A stretch of DNA of 64,000 nt from an uncultured Holophagales bacterium (GTDB lineage: Bacteria > Acidobacteriota > Thermoanaerobaculia > Multivoradales > UBA5704), in the NCBI GenBank assembly GCA_963842525.1, contig CAWJGT010000009.1, positions 256,001 to 320,000 of the forward strand, in the 5' to 3' direction. This document shows, piece after piece, positions 26,704 to 41,165 of this stretch. Position 1 is the first letter of the stretch, and every line of letters begins with the position of its first letter. The position numbers and the translations under genes were made by a program. Under the pieces are notes generated by a model. It worked only from the letters and a program-made list of their open reading frames with translations. It was not told the DNA's origin and did no database searches.

Positions 26704-27519
26704 ATGAAGGCGCGCATTCTTGTGGTCGAAGACGAGGAGCGGTGGCTGGAGAACTTCCAGGAGTGGATACCGGAGGATCTGGCTTCCCAGGACTCCGCTT
26801 CATCCTCGATCGAGGCTGCCAGGCTGCTGCGCAGGTTTCATTACGACCTTGTGCTGCTCGATTTGTCGATGGACGTTACCAATATCTCCAATCGGGATAC
26901 CCGTCCGATTCAGGAGTATCTTGCACGGCGGCCCGAGGGGACGCTGTACATTGTGATCTCGGCAACAGCGCAGAAGCACGACGTTCGTGACGCGGCGTTC
27001 AGGCTTGGGGCATGGGACGTCATCTTCAAAACTGAAGCTGAGCCGGCTGTTCTCAGGGAGAGGGTGGCGGCAGCGGTGGCAGACACTGGTCGACATCATG
27101 AGCAATGGATCATCGAGGCCAGGACAAAGTTGATCAAGGATCACGTGCATGACGGCCAGATCCTCAGCGCTCTGCAGCCACGTGGGGGAGCATCCAGCAT
27201 GTACGGCCTCATGGATGCCCTGTTTCGCGCCATCGCTCCGATCGGACAGCATCGCGACAGGCTGCACTTCGCCGTCACAGGCCAATGCGTGTGCGGTCTG
27301 GTATGGAGCCGCCTTCGGGGGGCAGCGGTTTCCTTCGTCCTTGCGAATCGCAGCATAGAGGAAGAGGCCGCGCTGGCAGAGCTCGCGGACTGGATGGGGT
27401 TTGCGGAGCGGGGCGAGCGCCTGATCTCTCGAGAGCTGCACCGAGTTCGTATATGGGGATTCGAGGAGACGAGCATCACGGATTCCCACTTCGACCTTCC
27501 TGACATCCGGGTCGCTTGA
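26704..27519 (+). CDS. Response regulator with unrecognised C-terminal domain
   Basis: ILVVEDE, VLLDLSM, ISAT, IFK receiver residues; RBS aggagg. Confidence 0.85.
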   Translation: MKARILVVEDEERWLENFQEWIPEDLASQDSASSSIEAARLLRRFHYDLVLLDLSMDVTNISNRDTRPIQEYLARRPEGTLYIVISATAQKHDVRDAAFRLGAWDVIFKTEAEPAVLRERVAAAVADTGRHHEQWIIEARTKLIKDHVHDGQILSALQPRGGASSMYGLMDALFRAIAPIGQHRDRLHFAVTGQCVCGLVWSRLRGAAVSFVLANRSIEEEAALAELADWMGFAERGERLISRELHRVRIWGFEETSITDSHFDLPDIRVA

Positions 27520-28637
27520 GTGGCACGATGGAGTTGCCGATCGACCTGATCCGTGCGTTCAAGCTGGTAGGCGGTGAGGGTGTGGTGGCTTTCGTTGGAT
27601 CTGGCCCCTCGTGCGATGCCGGCGTCCCGAATTGGTCGGATCTGATCCGGTGCGTCGCAGTTGACGTCGGTCTCGATGCCGAGATCTCTCCATATTTGTC
27701 GACGGGGCGCCTGCTGGAAGCGGCACAGTTTCTCAGTCGCTCGAGGTCGGAGGAGGACATCCAGGAGAGGGTAGCGAAGGAGATTCAACGGACCGCCCGG
27801 CCGGGACGTGTCCACGAGCTCATCGTTGGCGCGCCCTTTTCGGGCATCGTGACCACAAATTACGACTTGCTGCTGAGCATGGCCGATCGAGCTCGAAAGT
27901 TTGACGTTCCGACGACCCATCAGAGCGTCACCGTTCGCGACCACCTTCATCGCCCATTCGTTCTCCATCTCCATGGGCATGTGAATGAGCCAAGGACGAT
28001 CGTGCTCAGTCGTAGCGGCTATGACCAGATCGTCGCCCCGGCAGGAGCGCCAGCCCGGCAGTTCTTGTATAGCACCCTGGGATCGTTTACGCTGCTCTTT
28101 ATCGGATTCGGGTTTCGAGACCCAAATATCGACGCCATCCTCAGGGAGGGCAGCGAGTTGAGCACAATCGGCGGGTCTAGCGTCTTTGCTCTAGTGCCGT
28201 CGGGCCCGAAGATTGATCATGTGCTCGATGCCAACCTAAGAACGAGGAAAGTCAATCCAATCTATATCGAAGATCGGGGCGATCACGGCACGCAAGCACT
28301 TTGCGAGTGGCTGGAAAGCCTGACACGGGCAGTCGAGAGGGTCACCTTGTCGCGTCAGTCGCCGGTGCGGAACGCCAAGCCGGCCGAGTTGCTGCAGAGG
28401 ATTCAGTCGCTGTTGCAATCAGGTGACTGGAGGCTTGTCCTCGCGAAGGCTGTGGCGGAACTGGAAAACCGCCCGGATTTGCAGAATCTTGCGCGCAAGG
28501 GATTCACCAATGAAGACATCCCAAGATTGTTCGATCAGATGTCGATCGGCGAGACACGGAGGATTTTGATGTCAGTGAATCGAGAGCGCAGGAATGAGGT
28601 GGTGGAGGATGCCCTCTCCTGCTTTCCGCCCGGGTGA
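27516..28637 (+). CDS. SIR2-like (defence-type) protein with C-terminal helical domain
   Basis: FVGSGPS..AGVPNW, IVTTNYD, LHLHG, LLFIGFGFRDPNI; overlaps RR stop. Confidence 0.9.
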   Translation: MSGTMELPIDLIRAFKLVGGEGVVAFVGSGPSCDAGVPNWSDLIRCVAVDVGLDAEISPYLSTGRLLEAAQFLSRSRSEEDIQERVAKEIQRTARPGRVHELIVGAPFSGIVTTNYDLLLSMADRARKFDVPTTHQSVTVRDHLHRPFVLHLHGHVNEPRTIVLSRSGYDQIVAPAGAPARQFLYSTLGSFTLLFIGFGFRDPNIDAILREGSELSTIGGSSVFALVPSGPKIDHVLDANLRTRKVNPIYIEDRGDHGTQALCEWLESLTRAVERVTLSRQSPVRNAKPAELLQRIQSLLQSGDWRLVLAKAVAELENRPDLQNLARKGFTNEDIPRLFDQMSIGETRRILMSVNRERRNEVVEDALSCFPPG

Positions 28638-31794: not shown

Positions 31795-32660
31795 GCCTTC
31801 CTAGCGAGGTCCTCCGGCTGCTGAGTTGCCCGGCTTGTGGAGGGCAGCTCTCCGATGCCGAGTCCGGGCTGGCCTGCCTGGGGCCCTCCAGACACATCTT
31901 TCCGCTCGAAGACGGCTTCCTCACCTTCGCCAAGCCGCCTGTGGGCAAGTACGATCCCGCCTATGCGGCGCGGTACGCGGCTCTCTGGGCCTTCGGATAC
32001 GAGACGCTCCACAGCGGTTTCGACGAATCCCTCTACCGCTCGGTTTCTTCTCTTGCTGCCGAGGCGCTGGCCTCTGCGCCGCGAGAAGGCCCGCGATCGA
32101 TCGTCGACTGCGGCTGCGGCGTGGGAAGGGTGGCGGCGGACTGCGCGGCCCTGGCTCCCGATGGCGTCGTCCTGGGCGTGGATGGCTCGCTCGCCATGCT
32201 CGAGCTGGCAGAACGGATCGTCCACGGCCGCGAGCCCGTGGCTGTGGACCTCTCCGCTTACGGCTTCGGGACTCTCACCATCCCGGCCCGGACACGGGAG
32301 AACGTCCACTTCTTCCGCGCCGACGTGGAGGATCTCCCTGTCGCCGACGGCTGCGCGGACCTCGCTCTGAGCATCAACATCATCGACCGCCTTCCCCACG
32401 GCCCGGACCGTGCCTTCGCCGAGTGCCACCGCATCCTCCGGCCGGGAGGCCATCTGCTCTTCGTCAATCCGCTAAACTGGACGGAAGGAGCGCTGTGGGA
32501 GCAGTACGGCCGGGGGGAAGCGATCGTTCGTCTCCTGGAAGGGCACGGCTTTCGCATCGAAACCTGGTTCGACGGCCTTGCCTACCGGGAGATCCTTGAC
32601 CGCCGGGGCTCGTTCGAAGAGTTCACCACCCTGGTGGTGCTCGCCCGCAAAGGCCGGTGA
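31791..32660 (+). CDS. Class I SAM methyltransferase with N-terminal Trm112-like Zn module
   Basis: LSCPACGG; VDCGCGVG; RILRPGG. Confidence 0.85.
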   Translation: MSLPSEVLRLLSCPACGGQLSDAESGLACLGPSRHIFPLEDGFLTFAKPPVGKYDPAYAARYAALWAFGYETLHSGFDESLYRSVSSLAAEALASAPREGPRSIVDCGCGVGRVAADCAALAPDGVVLGVDGSLAMLELAERIVHGREPVAVDLSAYGFGTLTIPARTRENVHFFRADVEDLPVADGCADLALSINIIDRLPHGPDRAFAECHRILRPGGHLLFVNPLNWTEGALWEQYGRGEAIVRLLEGHGFRIETWFDGLAYREILDRRGSFEEFTTLVVLARKGR

Positions 32661-32743
32661 TACGATGGGGATGTTTCGCGAAGCCGCGAATCCAACCCGC
32701 CGGGTGGTGCCGTAGAGAGAGTTACATGGCAGGGAGGTGCGAC

Positions 32744-33760
32744 ATGGTCCCGGAGGTCCAATCGATCCCGACAGAGCGGCTCCAGATCCGCGAGATCGGG
32801 TCCGGGCGCGCCGCGGCGAGCTTCGCCGAGGATGTACGCCGCGGCCTGACGTCGTCCCCCAAGGTTCTGTTTCCCAAGTACTTCTATGACGCGCTGGGAT
32901 CGAAGCTCTTCGAGGCGATCTGCGAGCTGCCCGAGTACTACGTCACCCGGGCCGAGACGGAGGTCTTCCTCGCGCACGCCCGGGAAATCGCCGGCGCGCT
33001 CGGCAGTCCGGTGCGGATGATCGAGCTGGGGAGCGGCGACGGCCGGAAGACCCGCCTCCTGATCGAGGCGCTGCTCGACCGCCAGGGCGGGCTCGATTAC
33101 GTGCCGATCGACATCTCCCGGCCGGCCATCGAGGAGAGCGGCGAAAAGCTCCTCTTCGCCTATCCTGAGCTGCGGATCGAGGCTTGGGTGGGCGAGTTCG
33201 TCCCCACCTTGCGCGCTCTCGCCCGGAAGGCGCCTGCGCCCGTAGGGACCCGCACGCTGGCGCTCTTCCTCGGCTCGACGCTGGGCAACCTCGAGCCGGA
33301 CGAACGGACCGGCCTCCTGGGCGCCGTCCGCGACCTGCTGCGTCCCGGAGACGGCTTCCTCGTGGGGGTCGACCTCCGGAAGCCGGCGAGCGTCCTGGTG
33401 CCGGCGTACGACGACGCCCTGGGGGTGACCGCGGCGTTCAACCTCAACCTCCTCGGGCGCATCAACCGCGAGCTGGGCGGCGGCTTCGACCTCACCGCCT
33501 TCCGGCACCGGGCGCGCTGGAACGACGAGCTGAGCCGTATCGAGATGCACCTGGAGAGCCTCCGAGACCAGGCTGTGCCCATCCGCGGCCTCGGCCTGGA
33601 GGTCTCCTTTGCGACGGGAGAGACGATCCACACCGAGAGCTCGTACAAGTTCGAGACCGCGCAGATCGAACGGCTGGCGGCGGCAACCGGCTTCGAGCTG
33701 CGCCGGGCCTGGACGGACGGGGAGCGGCGCTTCGGCTCCCACCTGCTTGTGGCAAGATGA
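32744..33760 (+). CDS. egtD: L-histidine N(alpha)-methyltransferase
   Basis: PKYFYD..GS.LFE.I..LPEYY.TR.E, ELGSG, AYDDALGVTAAFNLN, IHTESSYKF. Confidence 0.92.
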   Translation: MVPEVQSIPTERLQIREIGSGRAAASFAEDVRRGLTSSPKVLFPKYFYDALGSKLFEAICELPEYYVTRAETEVFLAHAREIAGALGSPVRMIELGSGDGRKTRLLIEALLDRQGGLDYVPIDISRPAIEESGEKLLFAYPELRIEAWVGEFVPTLRALARKAPAPVGTRTLALFLGSTLGNLEPDERTGLLGAVRDLLRPGDGFLVGVDLRKPASVLVPAYDDALGVTAAFNLNLLGRINRELGGGFDLTAFRHRARWNDELSRIEMHLESLRDQAVPIRGLGLEVSFATGETIHTESSYKFETAQIERLAAATGFELRRAWTDGERRFGSHLLVAR

Positions 33761-33778: not shown

Positions 33779-33807
33779 TTGACAAGAGGGAAAAGACCGC
33801 TTAGGAT
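33779..33807 (+). promoter_or_regulatory. Sigma70 promoter for tRNA-His-hisS
   Basis: TTGACA-17 nt-TAGGAT. Confidence 0.8.
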
Positions 33808-33822
33808 GTCGCCCTCCTCGGG

Positions 33823-33901
33823 GCCGGTGTAGCTCAGCCCGGTTTAGAGCGCCTGACTGTGGATCAGGAGGTCATGGGTTCAAATCCCATCGCCGGTACC
33901 A
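33823..33901 (+). tRNA. tRNA-His(GTG), G1-U72, A73, encoded CCA
   Basis: Cloverleaf: GCCGGTG/CGCCGGT, GCTC/GAGC, CCTGA-CTGTGGA-TCAGG, ATGGG-TTCAAAT-CCCAT, then A-CCA. Confidence 0.97.
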
Positions 33902-33946
33902 TTCCCTTTGTTTACGTAGGGTTAGCCCTTTCGAGGATCTCTTCTG

Positions 33947-35383
33947 ATGGCTGTCGAGCCCCGCCTGTCCCGTGGCCTGCGTGATCTTCTGTCGGACCAG
34001 ATGCTGGCCCGGCAGTGGATGATCGACACGATCCGGGATGTCTACGAGCTGTACGGCTTCGTGCCCCTGGGAACCCCGGCCATCGAGTACCTGGATGTGC
34101 TGCTCGGCTCCTCGGCCGGCGCCGAAGCCCAGCAGTCGATCTTCACCGTCCAGAATCCCGAGAAAGAGGAGCTGGGGCTCCGTTTCGACCTCACGGTCCC
34201 GCTCGCCCGGGTTGTCGCCCAGTACAAGGATCTGCCGCGGCCGTTCCGCCGCTACCAGGTCTCGCCGGTCTGGCGCGGGGACAAGCCGGGGCCGGGCCGT
34301 TTCCGCGAGTTCACCCAGTTCGACCTCGACTCGGTCGGCGTCGAGTCCGAAGTCGCCGACACCGAGATCGTCGCCGGGATGTGCGACACCCTGAGCGCGC
34401 TGCGGGTGGGCCCCTTCCGGGTGCGCTTCTCCAGCCGCGGCATCTTGAACGTCCTGCTCGCCTATGGCGGCATTGCGGCCGATCAGGGGACCGACGTTTT
34501 CCGCGTGCTCGACAAGCTGGACAAGGTAGGCCTGGAGAAGGTCCGCAAGGAGCTGACCGTCGGCTATGTGGACTCGTCCGGCGACGAGATCCGCGGCGTC
34601 GGCCTGACGGATGCGCAGGTGGACAAGATCGAGCGTTTCCTCCAGATCCGTTCGGACGACCGCCGCGAGGTCGTTGCCGAGCTGCGCAGCCTCTTCGCCG
34701 GGGTCGAGGGGGCTGATCGCGAGATCGGCACCGTGAACCGGATCTCCAGCCATCTCTACACACTGGGCTACGGCGAGGACCAGGTCTCTCTCGACCTCTC
34801 GGTCGCCCGCGGCTTGGCCTACTACACCGGGCCGGTCTTCGAGGCGATCCTGCTCGACGCGCCGCAGTTCGGCTCGGTCTTCGGCGGTGGACGTTACGAC
34901 GACCTGGTAATGCGCTTCCTGGGCGAAAAGGTGCCGGCGACCGGCGCCTCGATCGGTGTCGACCGGTTGCTCGCCGCCCTCATCCACCTCGGCCGCGCGG
35001 GGCAGCAGCAGTGCACGGCCAAGATCCTGGTCACCAACATGGACGCCGCCCTGACGGACGACTACCTCGCCATGACCTGGGAGCTGCGGCGGGCGGGCAT
35101 CCCGACCGAGCTCTACCTCGGCTCGGCCAAGGGGGTCGGCAAGCAGCTCAAGTACGCCGACGCCTGGGGAGTGCCGATCGCGCTGCTCTACGGCTCGAAC
35201 GAGAAGGAGCGGGGCGTGGTCACGCTCAAGGACATGGACGTCGGGCGGCAGCGTGCCAAGGCGCTGGAGGACCGCCGGGAGTGGCTCGAAGAGCGGCCCG
35301 GCCAGCGCGAGGTTCCGCGCGCCGAGCTGGTCGCCGCTGTCCGCGAAATGCTGGCCCAGGTCGAAAAGGGATCGGGCTGGTGA
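33947..35383 (+). CDS. hisS: Histidyl-tRNA synthetase (alphaproteobacterial-type)
   Basis: LRFDLTVPLAR, GRFREFTQFDLD, ARGLAYYTG, GGGRYDDL; DSSGD..G.GL insert and EW...RPGQ tail. Confidence 0.95.
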   Translation: MAVEPRLSRGLRDLLSDQMLARQWMIDTIRDVYELYGFVPLGTPAIEYLDVLLGSSAGAEAQQSIFTVQNPEKEELGLRFDLTVPLARVVAQYKDLPRPFRRYQVSPVWRGDKPGPGRFREFTQFDLDSVGVESEVADTEIVAGMCDTLSALRVGPFRVRFSSRGILNVLLAYGGIAADQGTDVFRVLDKLDKVGLEKVRKELTVGYVDSSGDEIRGVGLTDAQVDKIERFLQIRSDDRREVVAELRSLFAGVEGADREIGTVNRISSHLYTLGYGEDQVSLDLSVARGLAYYTGPVFEAILLDAPQFGSVFGGGRYDDLVMRFLGEKVPATGASIGVDRLLAALIHLGRAGQQQCTAKILVTNMDAALTDDYLAMTWELRRAGIPTELYLGSAKGVGKQLKYADAWGVPIALLYGSNEKERGVVTLKDMDVGRQRAKALEDRREWLEERPGQREVPRAELVAAVREMLAQVEKGSGW

Positions 35384-37179
35384 GCGACCCCGACCATCGC
35401 CGGCCCATCGTCCTCGACGGTAGGTCGCTGACGATCGAGGATCTCGTCCGTGTCGCGCGCGACCCGCGGGTCCGCGTCGAGATCGCGGACGAGGCTCTGG
35501 CCCGGCTCCACTCCAGCCGGGACCAGATCGAGCGCCTCGTCGCGAAGTATAAAGATGATTTCGAGAAGCTTGGCCGCGGCGAGGAGGCGCACCCTGTCCT
35601 CGAATACGGCGTCACGACCGGCTTCGGCGAATTCAAAAACATTGCCGTGGCGCCGGCGGATCTCCTGCAACTCCAGCGCAATATCCTGCTCAGCCACAGC
35701 GTGGGCGTGGGGGAGACGGCCGACGAGCTCCATCCTTCCAACTTCTTCGATCCCGAGGTGGTGCGCTCCGCCCTGGTCATCCGTTTGAACGCCTTTCTCA
35801 AGGGGCATTCCGGCGTCTGTCCCGAGCTGGCGCAGGCCGTCCAGGCCATGATCAACCGGGGGATCATCCCCCTGGTGCCGATCCGCGGCTCGGTGGGATC
35901 GAGCGGCGACCTCTGCCCGCTGTCCCACACGTTCGTCGTGCTGCTTGGCGAGAACCGCTGGTTCCTCGTGCGCGAGCCTGCGGACCTGGGATTCAAGCCG
36001 CGCGACCTGCGGAGCGGCCTGGAACAGCTTGCCGAGGACTTGGGCATGGCTGTGCCGCAGCCTTCCTACAAGGAGGGGCTGGCCCTGACCAACGGCGCCA
36101 CCTACTCGGCTGCGCTGCTCGCCCTGGCGGTCCACGACGGGGAGCGCGCGGCCCATGTGGCCGACACCGCCTGCGCTCTGACCCTGGAGGCGGTCTGTGG
36201 CTGTGCCCGGGCCTTCGACCCGCGGGTCCACGAGGCGCGCGGCCACGCGGGCCAGATCGCCTGCGCGGCCAATATCCGTGACTTGCTGAAAGGCAGCAAG
36301 CTGATCGAAAAGGCCGGTGCGGTCCAGGACGTCTACTCCCTGCGCTGCGCGCCGGCCGTCCATGGCGCGGCGCGGGACACTCTCGCCTATGCGCGCAAGG
36401 CCGTCGAAGCCGAGATCAACGCGGCGACGGACAATCCGCTCTTCTTCCCGGCCGACGAAGGCGCGCCCTGGGACCATGAGTTCCGGGACAACTGGCCGGC
36501 CGGCTACTCGGGCGAGCAGCGGATCTCCTATTCGGCGGGGAACTTCCACGGCGAGCCCGTGGGGGTGGCGGCGGACTGCCTGGCAATCGGCCTGGCCGAG
36601 CTGGCCGACATCTCCGAGCGGCGCACCCAGATGCTGCTCGACGCGCACCACAACCGCAACCTGCCGTCGAACCTGGTCCCGCACCGGGGGGTGAGCTCGG
36701 GCTACATGATCGCCCAGTACACCGCGGCGGGCGTGGTCTCCGAGAACAAGATCCTGACCCATCCGGCCTCGGTCGACTCCATCCCCACCTCTGCGAATGC
36801 GGAGGACCACAATGCCATGGCGACCATCGCCTGCCGCAAGCTGCGCACGGTCCTGCGCAACGTGCAGGCCGTTCTGGCCATCGAGCTGCTGGTGGCTGCC
36901 CAGGCCGTCGACTGGCGGGTCGGCATGAGCATCGATCCGTGCACCAACCACGACGCGCGCGAATCGGCCGACGACTGGAAGAGGGCCGAGGAGGAGGCGC
37001 AGAAATTCGCCCACGAGACCGCTCCCGAGAAGCGCGCCGCCATCGCCTCGAAGCTCGGCGAAGGCACTCGTGGCGCCTATCTCCGCATCCGCGAGCTCGT
37101 TCCGCCTCTGCTGACCGACCGCGTCCTGGAGGGAGAGGTTCGGGCGATGCGGGGGTTGGTGGAGGCGGGACTCGGCTGA
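35380..37179 (+). CDS. hutH: Histidine ammonia-lyase-like MIO enzyme (Ser-Ser-Gly triad)
   Basis: YGVTTGFG, LLSH, GSVGSSGDL, KEGLAL.NG, QDVYSLRC, GNFHG; GTGA-coupled to hisS. Confidence 0.8.
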   Translation: MSDPDHRRPIVLDGRSLTIEDLVRVARDPRVRVEIADEALARLHSSRDQIERLVAKYKDDFEKLGRGEEAHPVLEYGVTTGFGEFKNIAVAPADLLQLQRNILLSHSVGVGETADELHPSNFFDPEVVRSALVIRLNAFLKGHSGVCPELAQAVQAMINRGIIPLVPIRGSVGSSGDLCPLSHTFVVLLGENRWFLVREPADLGFKPRDLRSGLEQLAEDLGMAVPQPSYKEGLALTNGATYSAALLALAVHDGERAAHVADTACALTLEAVCGCARAFDPRVHEARGHAGQIACAANIRDLLKGSKLIEKAGAVQDVYSLRCAPAVHGAARDTLAYARKAVEAEINAATDNPLFFPADEGAPWDHEFRDNWPAGYSGEQRISYSAGNFHGEPVGVAADCLAIGLAELADISERRTQMLLDAHHNRNLPSNLVPHRGVSSGYMIAQYTAAGVVSENKILTHPASVDSIPTSANAEDHNAMATIACRKLRTVLRNVQAVLAIELLVAAQAVDWRVGMSIDPCTNHDARESADDWKRAEEEAQKFAHETAPEKRAAIASKLGEGTRGAYLRIRELVPPLLTDRVLEGEVRAMRGLVEAGLG

Positions 37180-38109: not shown

Positions 38110-39601
38110 GGAGAGAGAGCGGGCGACCCTGATCGCGACCCTTACGGCGCCACCGGCGCCGAAGGATCCTGGTTTTGCCGCGGCGCTCGACGGGGTCGAT
38201 TGGCTGGAGGTGCGGGCCGATCTGACGGGCGACCTGGACCCGAAGCCGTTGCGCCGGCAGCTTGATGGCAGGAAGCTCCTCTACACCCTGCGCAGCCGGG
38301 CCGAGGGGGGCTCTTTCGACGGCTCGCCCGAGGGCCGCAAGCGCCGGCTCCTCGACGCCGCTGCGCGGTTCGATCTCGTCGACCTCGAAGCGCAGCGCGA
38401 TCTCTCTCCCGACCTGCTCAAGGCGATCCCGCCCGGGAAGCGGGTCATTTCCTGGCACGGACCGGCTACCGGCTTGCCGGAGCTCCAGGCCTGCTTCGAG
38501 CGGATGGCTGCCGTCGATGCCGTCCTCTACAAGCTGGTCCCCGCGGCGGCGCAAGCCGGCGAGGAGCTGCCGCCGCTCCTCCTCCTCGCCAGCCTGGAGC
38601 GTCGCGATGTGATCGCTTTCTCGACCGGCAATACCGGCGCCTGGACGCGCCTGGTCGCGCCCCATCTCGGCGCACCGATGGTCTACGGTGCGCTGGGCGA
38701 CGTCCCCGGCGCGCCGGGGCAGATCCCGATCCGCCGCCTGCGCGAGGACTTCGGCCTGCCTGCGCTACGGCCGGTCCGGGCGCTGTATGGCATCGCCGGC
38801 AATCCGGTCGCGCACTCGCTCTCGCCGCGCCTGCACAACGCCGCCTATGCCGCCCTGGGCATCCCGGCGCTCTACGTCCCTTTCCATGTGGAATCGTTTG
38901 GCGACTTCTGGCTTGAGGTCGTCGAGTCGCCCGTCCTGGAGCAGGTCGGGATCCCTTTGCGCGGCCTGTCGATCACGACACCCTACAAGGAGGCGGCCCT
39001 GGCTGTGGCCGGTGCTGCGAGCCCGCGGTCCGAGCTGGTCAATTCGGCCAACACGCTTGTTTGGAACGAAGGAGTCTGGGAGGCGGAGACGACCGATCCG
39101 GACGGCGTGGTGCTGCCGCTCGTGCGGCGCGGGATCGACATCGCATCCCGAACGGCGGCAGTCGTGGGGACCGGCGGTGCCGGGCGCGCCGCGGCCGAGG
39201 GGCTCCTGGAGGCCGGCGCCGGCGTCACCCTGGTCAACCGCAGCGCCGAGCGCGGCCAGCGCGCCGCCGAGGTTCTGAAGGTCCCCTTCCTCACGCTCGA
39301 CGAATTCCGGCCCGCCGAGTACGACCTGCTGGTCAATGCCACCTCGCTCGGCCGCGCCGACGGCGAGCCGCTGCCGTTCCCGGTCGAGGACCTGCGCCCG
39401 GGCACCGTCGTGGTCGATCTCGTGTACGGCGACAAGCCGACGGCCCTGGTGCGTGCCGTGGAGGAGTGCGGGTTCCTCGCCGTGGACGGGCGGGAAGTGC
39501 TGGTGGGCCAGGCCCAGGGCCAGTTCCGGATGATGACCGGGCAGGAGCTGCCCGTGGACCTCGCCCTCCGCACGGTGGGGTTGGAGGAGTCCGCGCGATG
39601 A
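38108..39601 (+). CDS. aroDE: Bifunctional type I dehydroquinate dehydratase / shikimate dehydrogenase
   Basis: WLEVRAD, LRSRAEGG, ISWH; then HSLSPRLHN, T.PYKE, G.GGAGRA, VNATSLG. Confidence 0.88.
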   Translation: MERERATLIATLTAPPAPKDPGFAAALDGVDWLEVRADLTGDLDPKPLRRQLDGRKLLYTLRSRAEGGSFDGSPEGRKRRLLDAAARFDLVDLEAQRDLSPDLLKAIPPGKRVISWHGPATGLPELQACFERMAAVDAVLYKLVPAAAQAGEELPPLLLLASLERRDVIAFSTGNTGAWTRLVAPHLGAPMVYGALGDVPGAPGQIPIRRLREDFGLPALRPVRALYGIAGNPVAHSLSPRLHNAAYAALGIPALYVPFHVESFGDFWLEVVESPVLEQVGIPLRGLSITTPYKEAALAVAGAASPRSELVNSANTLVWNEGVWEAETTDPDGVVLPLVRRGIDIASRTAAVVGTGGAGRAAAEGLLEAGAGVTLVNRSAERGQRAAEVLKVPFLTLDEFRPAEYDLLVNATSLGRADGEPLPFPVEDLRPGTVVVDLVYGDKPTALVRAVEECGFLAVDGREVLVGQAQGQFRMMTGQELPVDLALRTVGLEESAR

Positions 39602-40551
39602 GAGTCTCCGCCGCCCTGCCGACCGGTGTCGCGGCCTTGCTCTTCGAGAGCGCCCGGCGCCGCCGCGCCGCCGAGGGCCGGTTGGTGTCGCTCCTCGAGG
39701 GCGCCGGTTATTCGGAGGTGATTCTGCCGATCCTCGACTACCTGGAGCCCTACGAGGCGCTGCTCACGCCGGCGAGCCGCGGCGAGCTCTACCGCTTCAT
39801 CGACCGCGACGGCGAGCAGCTCGCCCTGCGCTCCGACTTCACCCCCATGCTGGCCCGGCTGCTCGCCCCTCAGCTCCAGGGGCTGCCGCTGCCGCTCCGC
39901 CTCTATTACCGGGGCGACGTGATTCGCTACGAGGAGGAGCGGGCCGGCAGGCAGCGGGAGTTCTACCAGATCGGGGCCGAGCTGCTCGGGATGCCGGGAG
40001 AGCCGGCGGAGCGCGAGGTCCTCCGTCTGTTCCTGGAAATGCTGGCGCCGGAGGGGGAGGGAGAGACCCAGGTGGTGCTCGGGTTCGCCGGCGCTCTCGA
40101 CCGCCTGCTGACGGAGGCGGGGGATCCGCTGGCTCTGGCCGCGGCGGTGGCACACCGGGAACGCGGTGTCGCACGGCGGGCCTGCCCCAAGCTGCTGCCC
40201 ATCGTCGAGTCCGGGCTGCCCGAGGAGCCCGAGGACCTTGGGCCCGAGGCGGCCTGCCGCCTGCGCGGGCTGCTCGCCTTGCGGGATGAGCTGGCCGCGC
40301 GCTTCCCTTCTGTGCGGCTGATCGTCGATCTGGCCGAGTTCGCCCGCCACAGCCTCGACCCCCGGCTGTCCGTCGAGGCGGGCGACCGCTCGTACTACGA
40401 CGGCATCGTCTTCCGCGCCTACTCCGGCATCTCGGCGCTGCCGGTGGGCGGAGGAGGCCGTTACGACTCCCTGTTCCACCGGTTGGGAGCCGAGGTCCCG
40501 GCGGTGGGGTTCTCTTTGAGTCTCGAACGCCTGCTGGAGACGCGGCCGTGA
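39598..40551 (+). CDS. hisZ: ATP phosphoribosyltransferase regulatory subunit
   Basis: LRSDFTPMLAR, REFYQIGAEL, YYDGIVF, GGGRYD. Confidence 0.92.
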   Translation: MRVSAALPTGVAALLFESARRRRAAEGRLVSLLEGAGYSEVILPILDYLEPYEALLTPASRGELYRFIDRDGEQLALRSDFTPMLARLLAPQLQGLPLPLRLYYRGDVIRYEEERAGRQREFYQIGAELLGMPGEPAEREVLRLFLEMLAPEGEGETQVVLGFAGALDRLLTEAGDPLALAAAVAHRERGVARRACPKLLPIVESGLPEEPEDLGPEAACRLRGLLALRDELAARFPSVRLIVDLAEFARHSLDPRLSVEAGDRSYYDGIVFRAYSGISALPVGGGGRYDSLFHRLGAEVPAVGFSLSLERLLETRP

Positions 40552-41165
40552 TCCGCCTTGCGCTGCCCAAGGGGCGGAACCTGGAAGTCGCCCGCGCCGC
40601 CTTCCGGGCCGCCGGGCTCCTCGAAGGTCTCGACCTCGGCGGCCGGAGCCTTCTCGTCCAGTTGGACGGGATCGAGGTGCTCTCTCTCAAGGACTGGGAC
40701 CTCCCGCTGTACGTCGAGCACGGCGTGGCCGATTTCGGCATCGTGGGCAGCGACGTGCTGGCCGAGGTGGACGGCGACCTGCTGGTGCCGCTCCGGCTCC
40801 GGGACGGGCGCTCGCGGATGTCGCTGATCGGCCGTGATCCGGAGCTGCCCGCGCCGGGCAGCCAGGTGCGGCTGGCCACCAAGTACCCGCTCACCGCCCG
40901 CCGCCTGGTGGCCGACCGCCCCTGGGGGGCCGAGATCTTCAAGCTCTCGGGATCGATTGAGCTGGCGCCGGCGCTCCATCTCGCCGAGGTGGCGCTCGAC
41001 ATCGTCCAGACCGGACGGACGCTCGCCGAGAACCGGCTGGTCGAGATCGAAACCGTGGCCGAGGTGGCGGCCTGCCTGGTGGTGAACCGTGCCTCGTACC
41101 AGCGCCATCGCGCGCTCTTGAACGACTGGATCAACCGCCTGGAGGCGGCGGGGGTGGCGCTGTGA
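40548..41165 (+). CDS. hisG: ATP phosphoribosyltransferase, short form
   Basis: ALPKGR, ATKYP, GSIELAP, DIVQTGRTL.EN. Confidence 0.95.
   Translation: MIRLALPKGRNLEVARAAFRAAGLLEGLDLGGRSLLVQLDGIEVLSLKDWDLPLYVEHGVADFGIVGSDVLAEVDGDLLVPLRLRDGRSRMSLIGRDPELPAPGSQVRLATKYPLTARRLVADRPWGAEIFKLSGSIELAPALHLAEVALDIVQTGRTLAENRLVEIETVAEVAACLVVNRASYQRHRALLNDWINRLEAAGVAL

Follow-up and report, generated by a model that had tools for sequence, protein, structure and literature searches.

The 64-kb window analysed here, positions 256001-320000 of contig C9 in a 9,949,763-bp assembly of 34 contigs, carries a tRNA-His gene directly upstream of hisS, the gene for histidyl-tRNA synthetase (HisRS). In the canonical bacterial system, exemplified by E. 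coli, a templated G-1 pairs with C73 and RNase P cuts at -1. The alphaproteobacterial RRCH clade, including Caulobacter crescentus, has a tRNA-His without G-1, together with a divergent HisRS (Wang 2007; Ardell & Andersson 2006; both cited through PMC3064791 and PMC3937112). The two window genes bear the marks of this G-1-independent type, and lie at the following positions of the window.

33823..33901, + strand: tRNA-His(GUG) gene with G1-U72, A73, encoded CCA, G37, an 11-nt D-loop and a genomic G at -1 (ARAGORN, Rfam, sequence reading)
33947 (ATG)..35383 (TGA), + strand: hisS, a 478-aa HisRS of the G-1-independent type (TIGR00442, motif alignment, tree)

The tRNA-His(gtg) gene was the sole ARAGORN call within the window, and it matched Rfam RF00005 over 33823..33898 (69.8 bits, E 4e-15). 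Reading of the sequence gave the acceptor pairs G1-U72, C2-G71, C3-G70, G4-C69, G5-C68, U6-G67 and G7-C66. G33823 faces T33897 (G1-U72), C33825 faces G33895 (C3-G70), and the discriminator at 33898 is A73, followed by CCA at 33899-33901; G1-U72, C3-G70 and A73 are characters of the G-1-independent type, and the tRNAs read from named Alphaproteobacteria have G1-U72 too. The canonical combination of G-1:C73 with G1-C72 is absent, as the gene has U72 and A73, and the C72-C73 pattern described below had 0 matches in the host assembly (G000). The A at 33898 recurs in the nearest relative (L005), and A73 in 11 of 12 related acidobacterial genomes. The D-loop, AGCCCGGTTTA, has 11 nt with an extra U after U20, while most relatives have the 9-nt AGTTGGTTA. 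The bases from -3 to -1 are GGG (33820-33822). The initial annotation had reported a tRNA-His with G1-U72, A73 and CCA just 5' of hisS, and on this ARAGORN, RF00005 and the sequence agree.

The window HisRS scored 345.9 bits against the TIGR00442 hisS equivalog (cut-off 286.75). Among solved structures, the best two bacterial entries matched at E 2e-61 and 1e-60, followed by cytoplasmic HisRS at about 1e-53. The solved bacterial-type chains 4rdx/1adj and 1kmm/1htt, which we take to be Thermus and E. coli HisRS, matched only partially, at E 1e-22 to 1e-25. Because of this difference between the cytoplasmic and the bacterial-type chains, the window HisRS can be assigned to the archaeal/eukaryote-like kind. 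About 60 named HisRS of Rhodobacterales, Hyphomicrobiales, Caulobacterales and their allies, the lineages reported to lack G-1 (PMC3064791, PMC3937112), aligned at 37-48% identity, and the alignments reached residues 469-478 of 478.

Three features of the protein set this type apart. In the same alignment columns of the motif-2 loop, the window enzyme reads DKPG-PGRFREF, the named alphaproteobacterial loci EKPG-PGRF, and a group of relatives that keep a Gln reads KPQ-KGRF. More generally, (D/E)KP[G/D/E/N]-xGRFR is common to the window, its acidobacterial relatives and the named Alphaproteobacteria, and the other kind has KPQ-KGRFR or RPA-RGRFR. The Gly found for Gln in the window enzyme is described as a derived character covarying with loss of G-1:C73 (PMC3937112, legend of Fig. 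S1). The other two features are insertions. The window, all acidobacterial relatives and all named alphaproteobacterial enzymes have the insertion G[R/Y]xD-xSGDxxxGxGL (in the window VD-SSGDEIRGVGL, around residues 208-222), and the same set has a C-terminal insertion, ...R.EW...RPxQ..., in the anticodon-binding domain (REWLEERPGQ, around residues 445-454). Both are missing from the Gln-keeping relatives. The DSSGD..G.GL insertion and EW...RPGQ tail picked out in the initial annotation are therefore present, and each aligns with its counterpart in the HisRS of named Alphaproteobacteria. For anticodon reading, the likely basis has been placed in an insertion within the anticodon-binding domain (PMC3064791).

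The host assembly has 67.8% G+C, 96.37% completeness and 3.36% contamination. The best 120 matches listed to the window HisRS had 78-100% identity, and the named ones were all 'Thermoanaerobaculia bacterium'. Named genome records gave 83, 75, 73 and 73% for Thermoanaerobaculia, 71% for an 'Acidobacteria bacterium' (L008), 67% for Vicinamibacteria and 66% for Bryobacterales. L008 is the reverse complement of L100 from genome G088, which belongs taxonomically to the window's own class. Because the named HisRS relatives are acidobacterial and L008/G088 sits in the window's class, the host is a member of Acidobacteriota, class Thermoanaerobaculia. It lies outside the Alphaproteobacteria, as had been suspected, and so outside the RRCH clade, of which the trait has been described as a synapomorphy.

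Distribution of the two types of tRNA-His and HisRS

We compared the host with 300 further Acidobacteriota genomes (301 in total). As related genomes are not independent of one another, these counts serve as a description of the sample, not as statistics. HisRS of the window's type was found in 12 of the 300 (G271, G181, G045, G061, G075, G088, G169, G179, G296, G122, G008 and G279), at 48-74% identity and with the match running through the C-terminal insertion. The Gln-keeping type was tallied in 51, with one full-length match each at 36-44% identity. The remainder comprised 8 intermediate genomes, 193 with weak matches (bacterial-type enzymes) and 36 with no match at E 1e-10.

For the tRNA, a tRNA-His covariance model proved unselective, giving scores to every tRNA and leaving the canonical tRNA-His of G010 under its listing threshold. 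It was replaced by two strict patterns that run from the D-stem over the anticodon arm and T-loop to positions 72-73. The U72-A73 pattern occurred in 13 of 301 genomes, namely the host, 11 of the 12 with this HisRS type, and G027, an 83%-complete genome from the family of G008 in which no HisRS was found. The C72-C73 pattern occurred in 193 of 301, with an overlap of 0 between the two. The Gln-keeping genomes divided into 36 with C72-C73, 0 with U72-A73 and 15 with neither strict pattern. The U72-A73 tRNA-His thus tracks the G-1-independent HisRS type. The twelfth genome with this enzyme, G271, belongs to the window's own family, and its tRNA-His (L097 1352-1426, 5' of hisS) has U72, G73 and C at -1. 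This C could pair with G73, a mirror image of the canonical G-1:C73.

The new pair is patchy even among close kin. Within the window's order, families f1 and f4 carry it, and f2, f3, f5 and f6 have C72-C73 in 9 of 9 sampled genomes. Three canonical genes of the same order were read (G010, G281 and G191), and each has G at -1, G1-C72 and C73 and stands in a Pro-Arg-His-Arg cluster. Within the class, the pair was present in 4 of 5 f8 genomes, and f7, f9, f11 and f12 were canonical. The f7 tRNA was read from an unpublished genome (G029), and the tallies include the unpublished G029, G157 and G054; no conclusion rests on these.

Beyond the acidobacterial sample, 8 genomes were typed with this HisRS, and every one of them has G1-U72 with A73. 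They comprise one Bryobacterales genome, the Alphaproteobacteria Methyloligella and Phaeovulum, two bins without a label, and bins labelled Nitrospiraceae, Hydrogenedentota and Bacteroidetes. The Vicinamibacteria bin G001 and the Caulobacter bin G306 yielded no tRNA-His, and Planctomycetota are represented here by HisRS alone (the clusters of P0126 and P0127). The pair is thus no oddity of one genome, being present in several classes of Acidobacteriota as well as in bins that carry the labels of other phyla.

Gene linkage and neighbourhood

We called a tRNA-His gene linked if it lay on the same strand as hisS and ≤1.5 kb upstream, and scanned 60 of 80 named loci, leaving out L065-L084 (20 alphaproteobacterial loci). 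The two genes were linked in 8 of 13 non-alphaproteobacterial named loci of this type, and 2 of the 5 unlinked ones had <300 nt of upstream sequence. Of 12 acidobacterial loci with this type of enzyme, 10 showed linkage. It was seen in none of 17 Gln-type loci and in none of the 46 loci of the alphaproteobacterial clade among the 60 scanned. Two Thermoanaerobaculia loci (L007 1055-1381 and L096 2969-3269) have two tandem, slightly different U72-A73 tRNA-His genes 5' of hisS. In a Blastocatellia locus (L016 3336-4409), a second, distant HisRS-like frame (~30% identity) follows just 3' of a linked tRNA-His-hisS.

The window tRNA was compared with 13 tRNAs of this type and was 73-93% identical to 12 of them, including 87% to that of the Bacteroidetes-labelled bin and 80% to Methyloligella; Phaeovulum gave 64%. 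Identity to the canonical tRNA-His of its own order was 63-72%. Over the 76 nt compared, these values hint that the tRNA may have travelled with the enzyme.

The base at -1 was read in 25 non-alphaproteobacterial genes of this type and was T in 21, G in 3 and C in 1, while all 4 canonical genes read had G. The genomic G that the initial annotation noted at -1 is indeed there, and within the 25 genes the same base stands only in L005 and G169. Because -1 is T in 21 of the 25, the G in the window is probably incidental, and a templated G-1 does not appear to be a feature of the family. In Lutibacter sp. (L043 2883-2959, also L142), a tRNA-His lies directly 3' of a Gln-keeping, archaeal-like hisS. 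It has G1-C72, C73 and T at -1, so G-1 is not templated there either.

The features around the pair are as follows.

33779..33807, + strand: sigma-70-like promoter, TTGACA-17-TAGGAT, whose second hexamer ends 16 nt before tRNA position 1 (consensus match only)
33902..33946, + strand: 45-nt spacer between tRNA and hisS, with a GAGGA Shine-Dalgarno-like word ~10 nt 5' of the hisS ATG (our sequence reading)
32657..33760, + strand: egtD (L-histidine N-alpha-methyltransferase), conserved upstream neighbour (TIGR03438, 358.4 bits, cut-off 290.9)
35380..37179, + strand: histidine-ammonia-lyase-like (HAL-like) gene, 598 aa, conserved downstream neighbour, whose GTG start overlaps the hisS stop (GTGA)

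The promoter-like site was the only sigma-70-like one that the scan returned, where shuffled sequence gave an expectation of 0.1. Between 33500 and 34100 nothing resembling a terminator was seen, so none separates tRNA-His from hisS. This accords with the earlier description of hisS as starting 45 nt past the tRNA behind a single sigma70 promoter. A search of sequencing runs returned no RNA run and soil-metagenome DNA runs only, with shares ≤0.12, from which nothing is drawn on expression, co-transcription or habitat.

The neighbourhood is histidine-themed, with egtD on the 5' side and the HAL-like gene on the 3' side of the pair. An egtD gene also lies 5' of the tRNA in L005, L006, L008 (the same DNA as L100), L098 and L101. 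The HAL-like protein falls just below the hutH cut-offs (NF006871, 509 bits against 524; TIGR01225, 480 against 539), and within the main acidobacterial clade its gene lies 3' of hisS at 16 of 17 loci, as it does at 2 of 4 other acidobacterial loci with downstream flank. The order egtD - tRNA-His - hisS - HAL-like is kept in the Thermoanaerobaculia group, and its second half, hisS with the HAL-like gene after it, is also seen in G169, G179, G122 and G008. The wider surroundings are ordinary chromosomal genes, including a two-component pair, an epimerase, methyltransferases, aroD/E-like genes and hisZ-hisG, and no integrase was found among the ten window open reading frames scanned. The hisZ gene, a HisRS paralogue, lies with hisG at 39061-41165, 4 kb 3' of the pair and after an aroD/aroE-like fusion gene. 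Farther upstream, at 27516-28637, a SIR2_2-domain protein is encoded directly after a GAF histidine kinase and response regulator.

Histidine decoding in the host

The searches for a second histidine system covered the whole host assembly. ARAGORN called 58 tRNAs, one of which is a tRNA-His, and one HisRS scored above the TIGR00442 cut-off; the next match, at 133 bits, is hisZ, followed by hisG. No Thg1 domain was found in the assembly, and it contains a type-A RNase P RNA (269.8 bits). A regular-expression scan for the GUG anticodon arm with T-loop returned the window gene plus one chance match. A blastn search with a canonical tRNA-His of the same order found nothing tRNA-His-like in G000, G271, G181 or G045, the leftovers being partial matches of ≤80% identity or short words, uninspected; the control, G281, matched at 100%. 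The second tRNA-His, hisS or thg1 that the initial annotation proposed looking for was thus not found in the assembly. In a closed 5.9-Mb Thermoanaerobaculia chromosome with the same module there is exactly one tRNA-His-pattern match, of the U72-A73 kind. ARAGORN also listed three 'tRNA-???' of 84-93 nt with irregular anticodon loops in the host (C1 596982-597067, C9 728012-728095 and C19 381235-381327); Acidobacteria have been reported to carry irregular 'allo-tRNAs' (PMC5389517).

We consider it likely that the locus is the sole histidine decoding pair of the genome and that it works by the G-1-independent, or Caulobacter-type, identity rule. The function proposed is read from the Caulobacter experiments. 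With C. crescentus HisRS, the losses were 91-fold for U72C, 91- to 1000-fold for changes in the anticodon, 3-fold for A73C and 5-fold for addition of G-1, and bacterial RNase P keeps G-1 only if it is paired with C73 (both PMC3064791). In the window, the single promoter would give a transcript of tRNA-His and hisS, and possibly of the HAL-like gene. RNase P would cut at +1, because A73 leaves no G-1:C73 pair to shift cleavage to -1, and the mature tRNA would start at G1. The HisRS would have lost the motif-2-loop Gln that reads G-1:C73 and gained the insertion in its anticodon-binding domain. It would then select its tRNA by U72 and the GUG anticodon and less by base 73. The G73 variant of G271 fits a minor role of base 73.

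It is very unlikely, in comparison, that the pair follows a eukaryote-like rule, in which a templated or added G-1 is kept opposite A73 and read by the enzyme as yeast and human cytoplasmic HisRS do. The G encoded at -1, -2 and -3 of the window gene would suit this, as would the membership of its enzyme in the archaeal/eukaryote-like HisRS superfamily, with cytoplasmic HisRS at ~1e-53 against 1e-22 to 1e-25 for the bacterial-type chains. However, T at -1 in 21 of the 25 related genes and C in one imply that a templated G-1 is no rule of the family, and no Thg1 was found in the host assembly. Moreover, it is the Gln-keeping relatives that go with C72-C73, and the window enzyme is without that Gln. 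The retention of G-1 by bacterial RNase P only when paired with C73 (PMC3064791) also argues against this rule.

A different doubt concerns the word sole. In relatives of the same order, the canonical tRNA-His lies inside a Pro(tgg)-Arg(tct)-His-Arg(ccg) cluster. In the host, contig C5 (48184-48373) stops inside tRNA-Arg(tct), right after tRNA-Pro(tgg), and no tRNA-Arg(ccg) was found in the assembly. Because C5 breaks exactly where these relatives carry the canonical gene, a second tRNA-His may lie in the gap of an assembly that is 96.4% complete and in 34 contigs. The window locus would then be a second, orthogonal system beside a canonical tRNA-His, and perhaps HisRS, in unassembled sequence. 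We judge this very unlikely, since the C72-C73 pattern is present in 0 of the 13 acidobacterial U72-A73 genomes and is also absent from G271. The closed chromosome of the relative holds the U72-A73 gene alone, and the 9.95 Mb assembled contain no canonical hisS.

Besides the C5 break, several observations weigh against a G-1-independent sole pair. The D-loop of the window tRNA has 11 nt, against 9 nt reported for Alphaproteobacteria, and a G stands at -1 in the window, in its nearest relative L005 and in G169. The functional steps rest on enzymes just 37-48% identical to the window HisRS. The motif-2-loop residue is variable, with Gly in the window and Asp, Glu or Asn in relatives, and because this residue is not fixed, details of acceptor reading may differ from Caulobacter.

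Ancestry of the pair and comparison with known systems

HisRS phylogeny was reconstructed by maximum likelihood, with a quick tree of 77 rows and a careful tree of 64 rows (LG+C20+F+G4 by posterior mean site frequency, PMSF), and support is given as ultrafast bootstrap/SH-aLRT. Sequences whose match ran past the open frame (frameshift or split) were left out (L014, L016, L022, L038, L040, L041, L063, L068 and L073), and the remaining alphaproteobacterial loci were omitted from the 64-row tree to save time. The trees were rooted on the Gln-keeping enzymes, and the root depends on this outgroup. The quick and careful trees agree. Gln-keeping and G-1-independent-type HisRS were split at 100/99. 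The window belonged to a clade made up of 16 rows, acidobacterial or unnamed (100/99; 100/98 for 18 rows), that includes Thermoanaerobaculia, Vicinamibacteria and Bryobacterales. The 15 alphaproteobacterial rows formed a clade without the window (100/97), recovered in 100% of 200 bootstrap trees. That clade lies inside a 22-row clade (100/97) whose earlier branches are non-alphaproteobacterial, comprising one cluster with Planctomycetota-named members (P0126), another named Candidatus Uabimicrobium (P0127), unlabelled bins and the acidobacterium G279. Acidobacterial members occupy at least three places in the tree, namely the main clade, an f61/f88 group and G279. Forcing all 38 non-alphaproteobacterial rows of the type into one clade cost 151 log-likelihood units and was rejected (approximately unbiased test, p-AU 1.2e-6).

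Because the alphaproteobacterial clade excludes the window and nests in non-alphaproteobacterial diversity, these rooted trees indicate that the alphaproteobacterial HisRS is an offshoot of a wider bacterial radiation and that the window HisRS does not derive from an alphaproteobacterium. In keeping with the initial label 'alphaproteobacterial-type HisRS', the window enzyme groups with the G-1-independent enzymes of the RRCH clade (100/99), away from canonical and Gln-keeping HisRS, but it stands outside the alphaproteobacterial subclade. Two placements in the tree deserve mention. The HisRS of G279 (L107, family f31) adjoins the alphaproteobacterial clade at 93/89, apart from other acidobacteria. 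The other f31 genomes show canonical matches or none, which suggests that G279 gained its HisRS in a separate transfer. A 'Luminiphilus sp.' bin (L045, L141), labelled Gammaproteobacteria, has a HisRS nested in Rhodobacterales and a U72-A73 tRNA-His on a 2.4-kb contig, probably through contamination or transfer.

The trees bear on two further explanations. A recent import of the pair from an alphaproteobacterium, although the tRNA features and protein insertions match that clade, is extremely unlikely given the separation of the alphaproteobacterial rows from the window's clade in every bootstrap tree, the higher identity to acidobacterial enzymes (66-83% against 37-48%) and the unlinked genes of the alphaproteobacterial loci scanned. 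An alphaproteobacterial source is accordingly set aside. Convergence, in which Acidobacteria started from an archaeal-like HisRS of their own and came to U72, A73 and the changes in the enzyme independently, is equally unlikely; the Gln-keeping enzymes, common in the phylum (51 of 300 sampled genomes), offer a possible starting point, but the two insertions are shared with alphaproteobacterial enzymes in the same place and sequence pattern, this type and the acidobacterial Gln-type rows lie on opposite sides of a 100/99 branch, and the acidobacterial members are scattered over separate places within the clade of this type.

We therefore return to the reading of a G-1-independent pair and to how the host may have obtained it. 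Because the pair is patchy within one order, and from the linkage and the tree, we argue that tRNA-His and hisS may have entered as a unit and replaced the resident pair. The co-transfer raised in the initial annotation fits the linkage and the patchy distribution. On this history, tRNA and enzyme would have come together, as a linked module, into a subgroup of Thermoanaerobaculia, where they would have displaced the canonical G-1:C73 tRNA-His and bacterial HisRS still present in sister families. The same module would circulate among further Acidobacteriota and in bins that bear the labels of other phyla, and the alphaproteobacterial system would be one offshoot of this pool. Two points count against this history: the group in the approximately unbiased test was defined after the tree had been seen, and the phylum labels outside Acidobacteriota and Alphaproteobacteria come partly from short contigs of genome bins.

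The window system shares many details with that of the RRCH clade. The tRNA has the same G1-U72, A73, C3-G70 and extra U after U20. The HisRS has likewise lost the motif-2-loop Gln, has the same insertions in mid-protein and in the C-terminal anticodon-binding domain, and falls in the same protein clade. Unlike the RRCH system, it occurs in an acidobacterial host, with an enzyme outside the alphaproteobacterial subclade and 37-48% identical to its members. Its tRNA adjoins hisS and is probably co-transcribed with it, whereas linkage was seen in none of the 46 alphaproteobacterial-clade loci. The G at -1, the 11-nt D-loop and the position between egtD and a HAL-like gene are further differences. 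With the canonical bacterial system, which is that of sister families in the host's order, it shares the amino acid, the anticodon and the class IIa fold. It differs from that system in lacking C73 and G1-C72 and in its enzyme, distant from solved bacterial-type HisRS (partial matches, E 1e-22 to 1e-25). By sequence, the window system is homologous to the alphaproteobacterial one, and it clearly departs from the definition of that system only in the taxonomy of its host.

Other systems offer looser parallels. The pylT-pylS cassette also places a tRNA gene and its dedicated synthetase side by side and spreads them together between distant lineages. It adds a new amino acid, whereas a module of the window type would replace the identity rule for an existing one. 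G-1-independent HisRS and tRNA-His have been described in some eukaryotes, such as Trypanosoma brucei and Acanthamoeba castellanii (PMC4338351, PMC9976931). As described there, these resemble the window system in having no Thg1, a G-1-less A73 tRNA-His and a non-canonical synthetase; they belong to separate lineages, and the likeness is one of description.

A literature search found no paper on this system in bacteria outside the Alphaproteobacteria, although the founding papers and their supplements may hold an earlier note. In the parts available of two 2023 reviews (PMC9976931, PMC10275265), the system is mentioned for the alphaproteobacterial clade only. An A73, G-1-less 8/4 tRNA-His has been noted in phages and one alphaproteobacterium (PMC5389517), and a later study gave no support to an origin proposed earlier (PMC5370408). 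The trait has been relied on as a marker when relationships among Alphaproteobacteria were at issue, as in the debate on SAR11 (PMC3937112), and alphaproteobacterial HisRS/tRNA-His pairs have already been used as orthogonal pairs in E. coli (PMC3064791, PMC7590224).

Thus a system believed to be confined to some Alphaproteobacteria is present in other bacterial phyla too, where its two genes are often linked. With some reserve, we lean towards a broader interpretation, in which the G-1-independent histidine set is no alphaproteobacterial invention but a tRNA-His-hisS module capable of transfer. It would have taken the place of the near-universal G-1:C73 system repeatedly in Acidobacteriota, and probably also in Nitrospirota, Hydrogenedentota, Planctomycetota and others. 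From this pool the ancestor of Rhizobiales, Rhodobacterales and Caulobacterales would have acquired it and later unlinked the genes, and a change of identity rule for a standard amino acid could spread horizontally as a two-gene unit.

If this is true, at least one further phylum has the trait on contigs that are long and well placed, in addition to bins labelled as several more. The alphaproteobacterial version would derive from a wider pool, and a marker used for relationships would be one that can move between lineages. The locus would be a natural example of how a tRNA identity rule that is essential can be exchanged without passing through a lethal intermediate, as tRNA and synthetase arrive together. 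It would also add to the natural HisRS/tRNA-His pairs with possible orthogonality in E. coli. The main interest of the locus lies in the origin and mobility of G-1-independent histidine systems.

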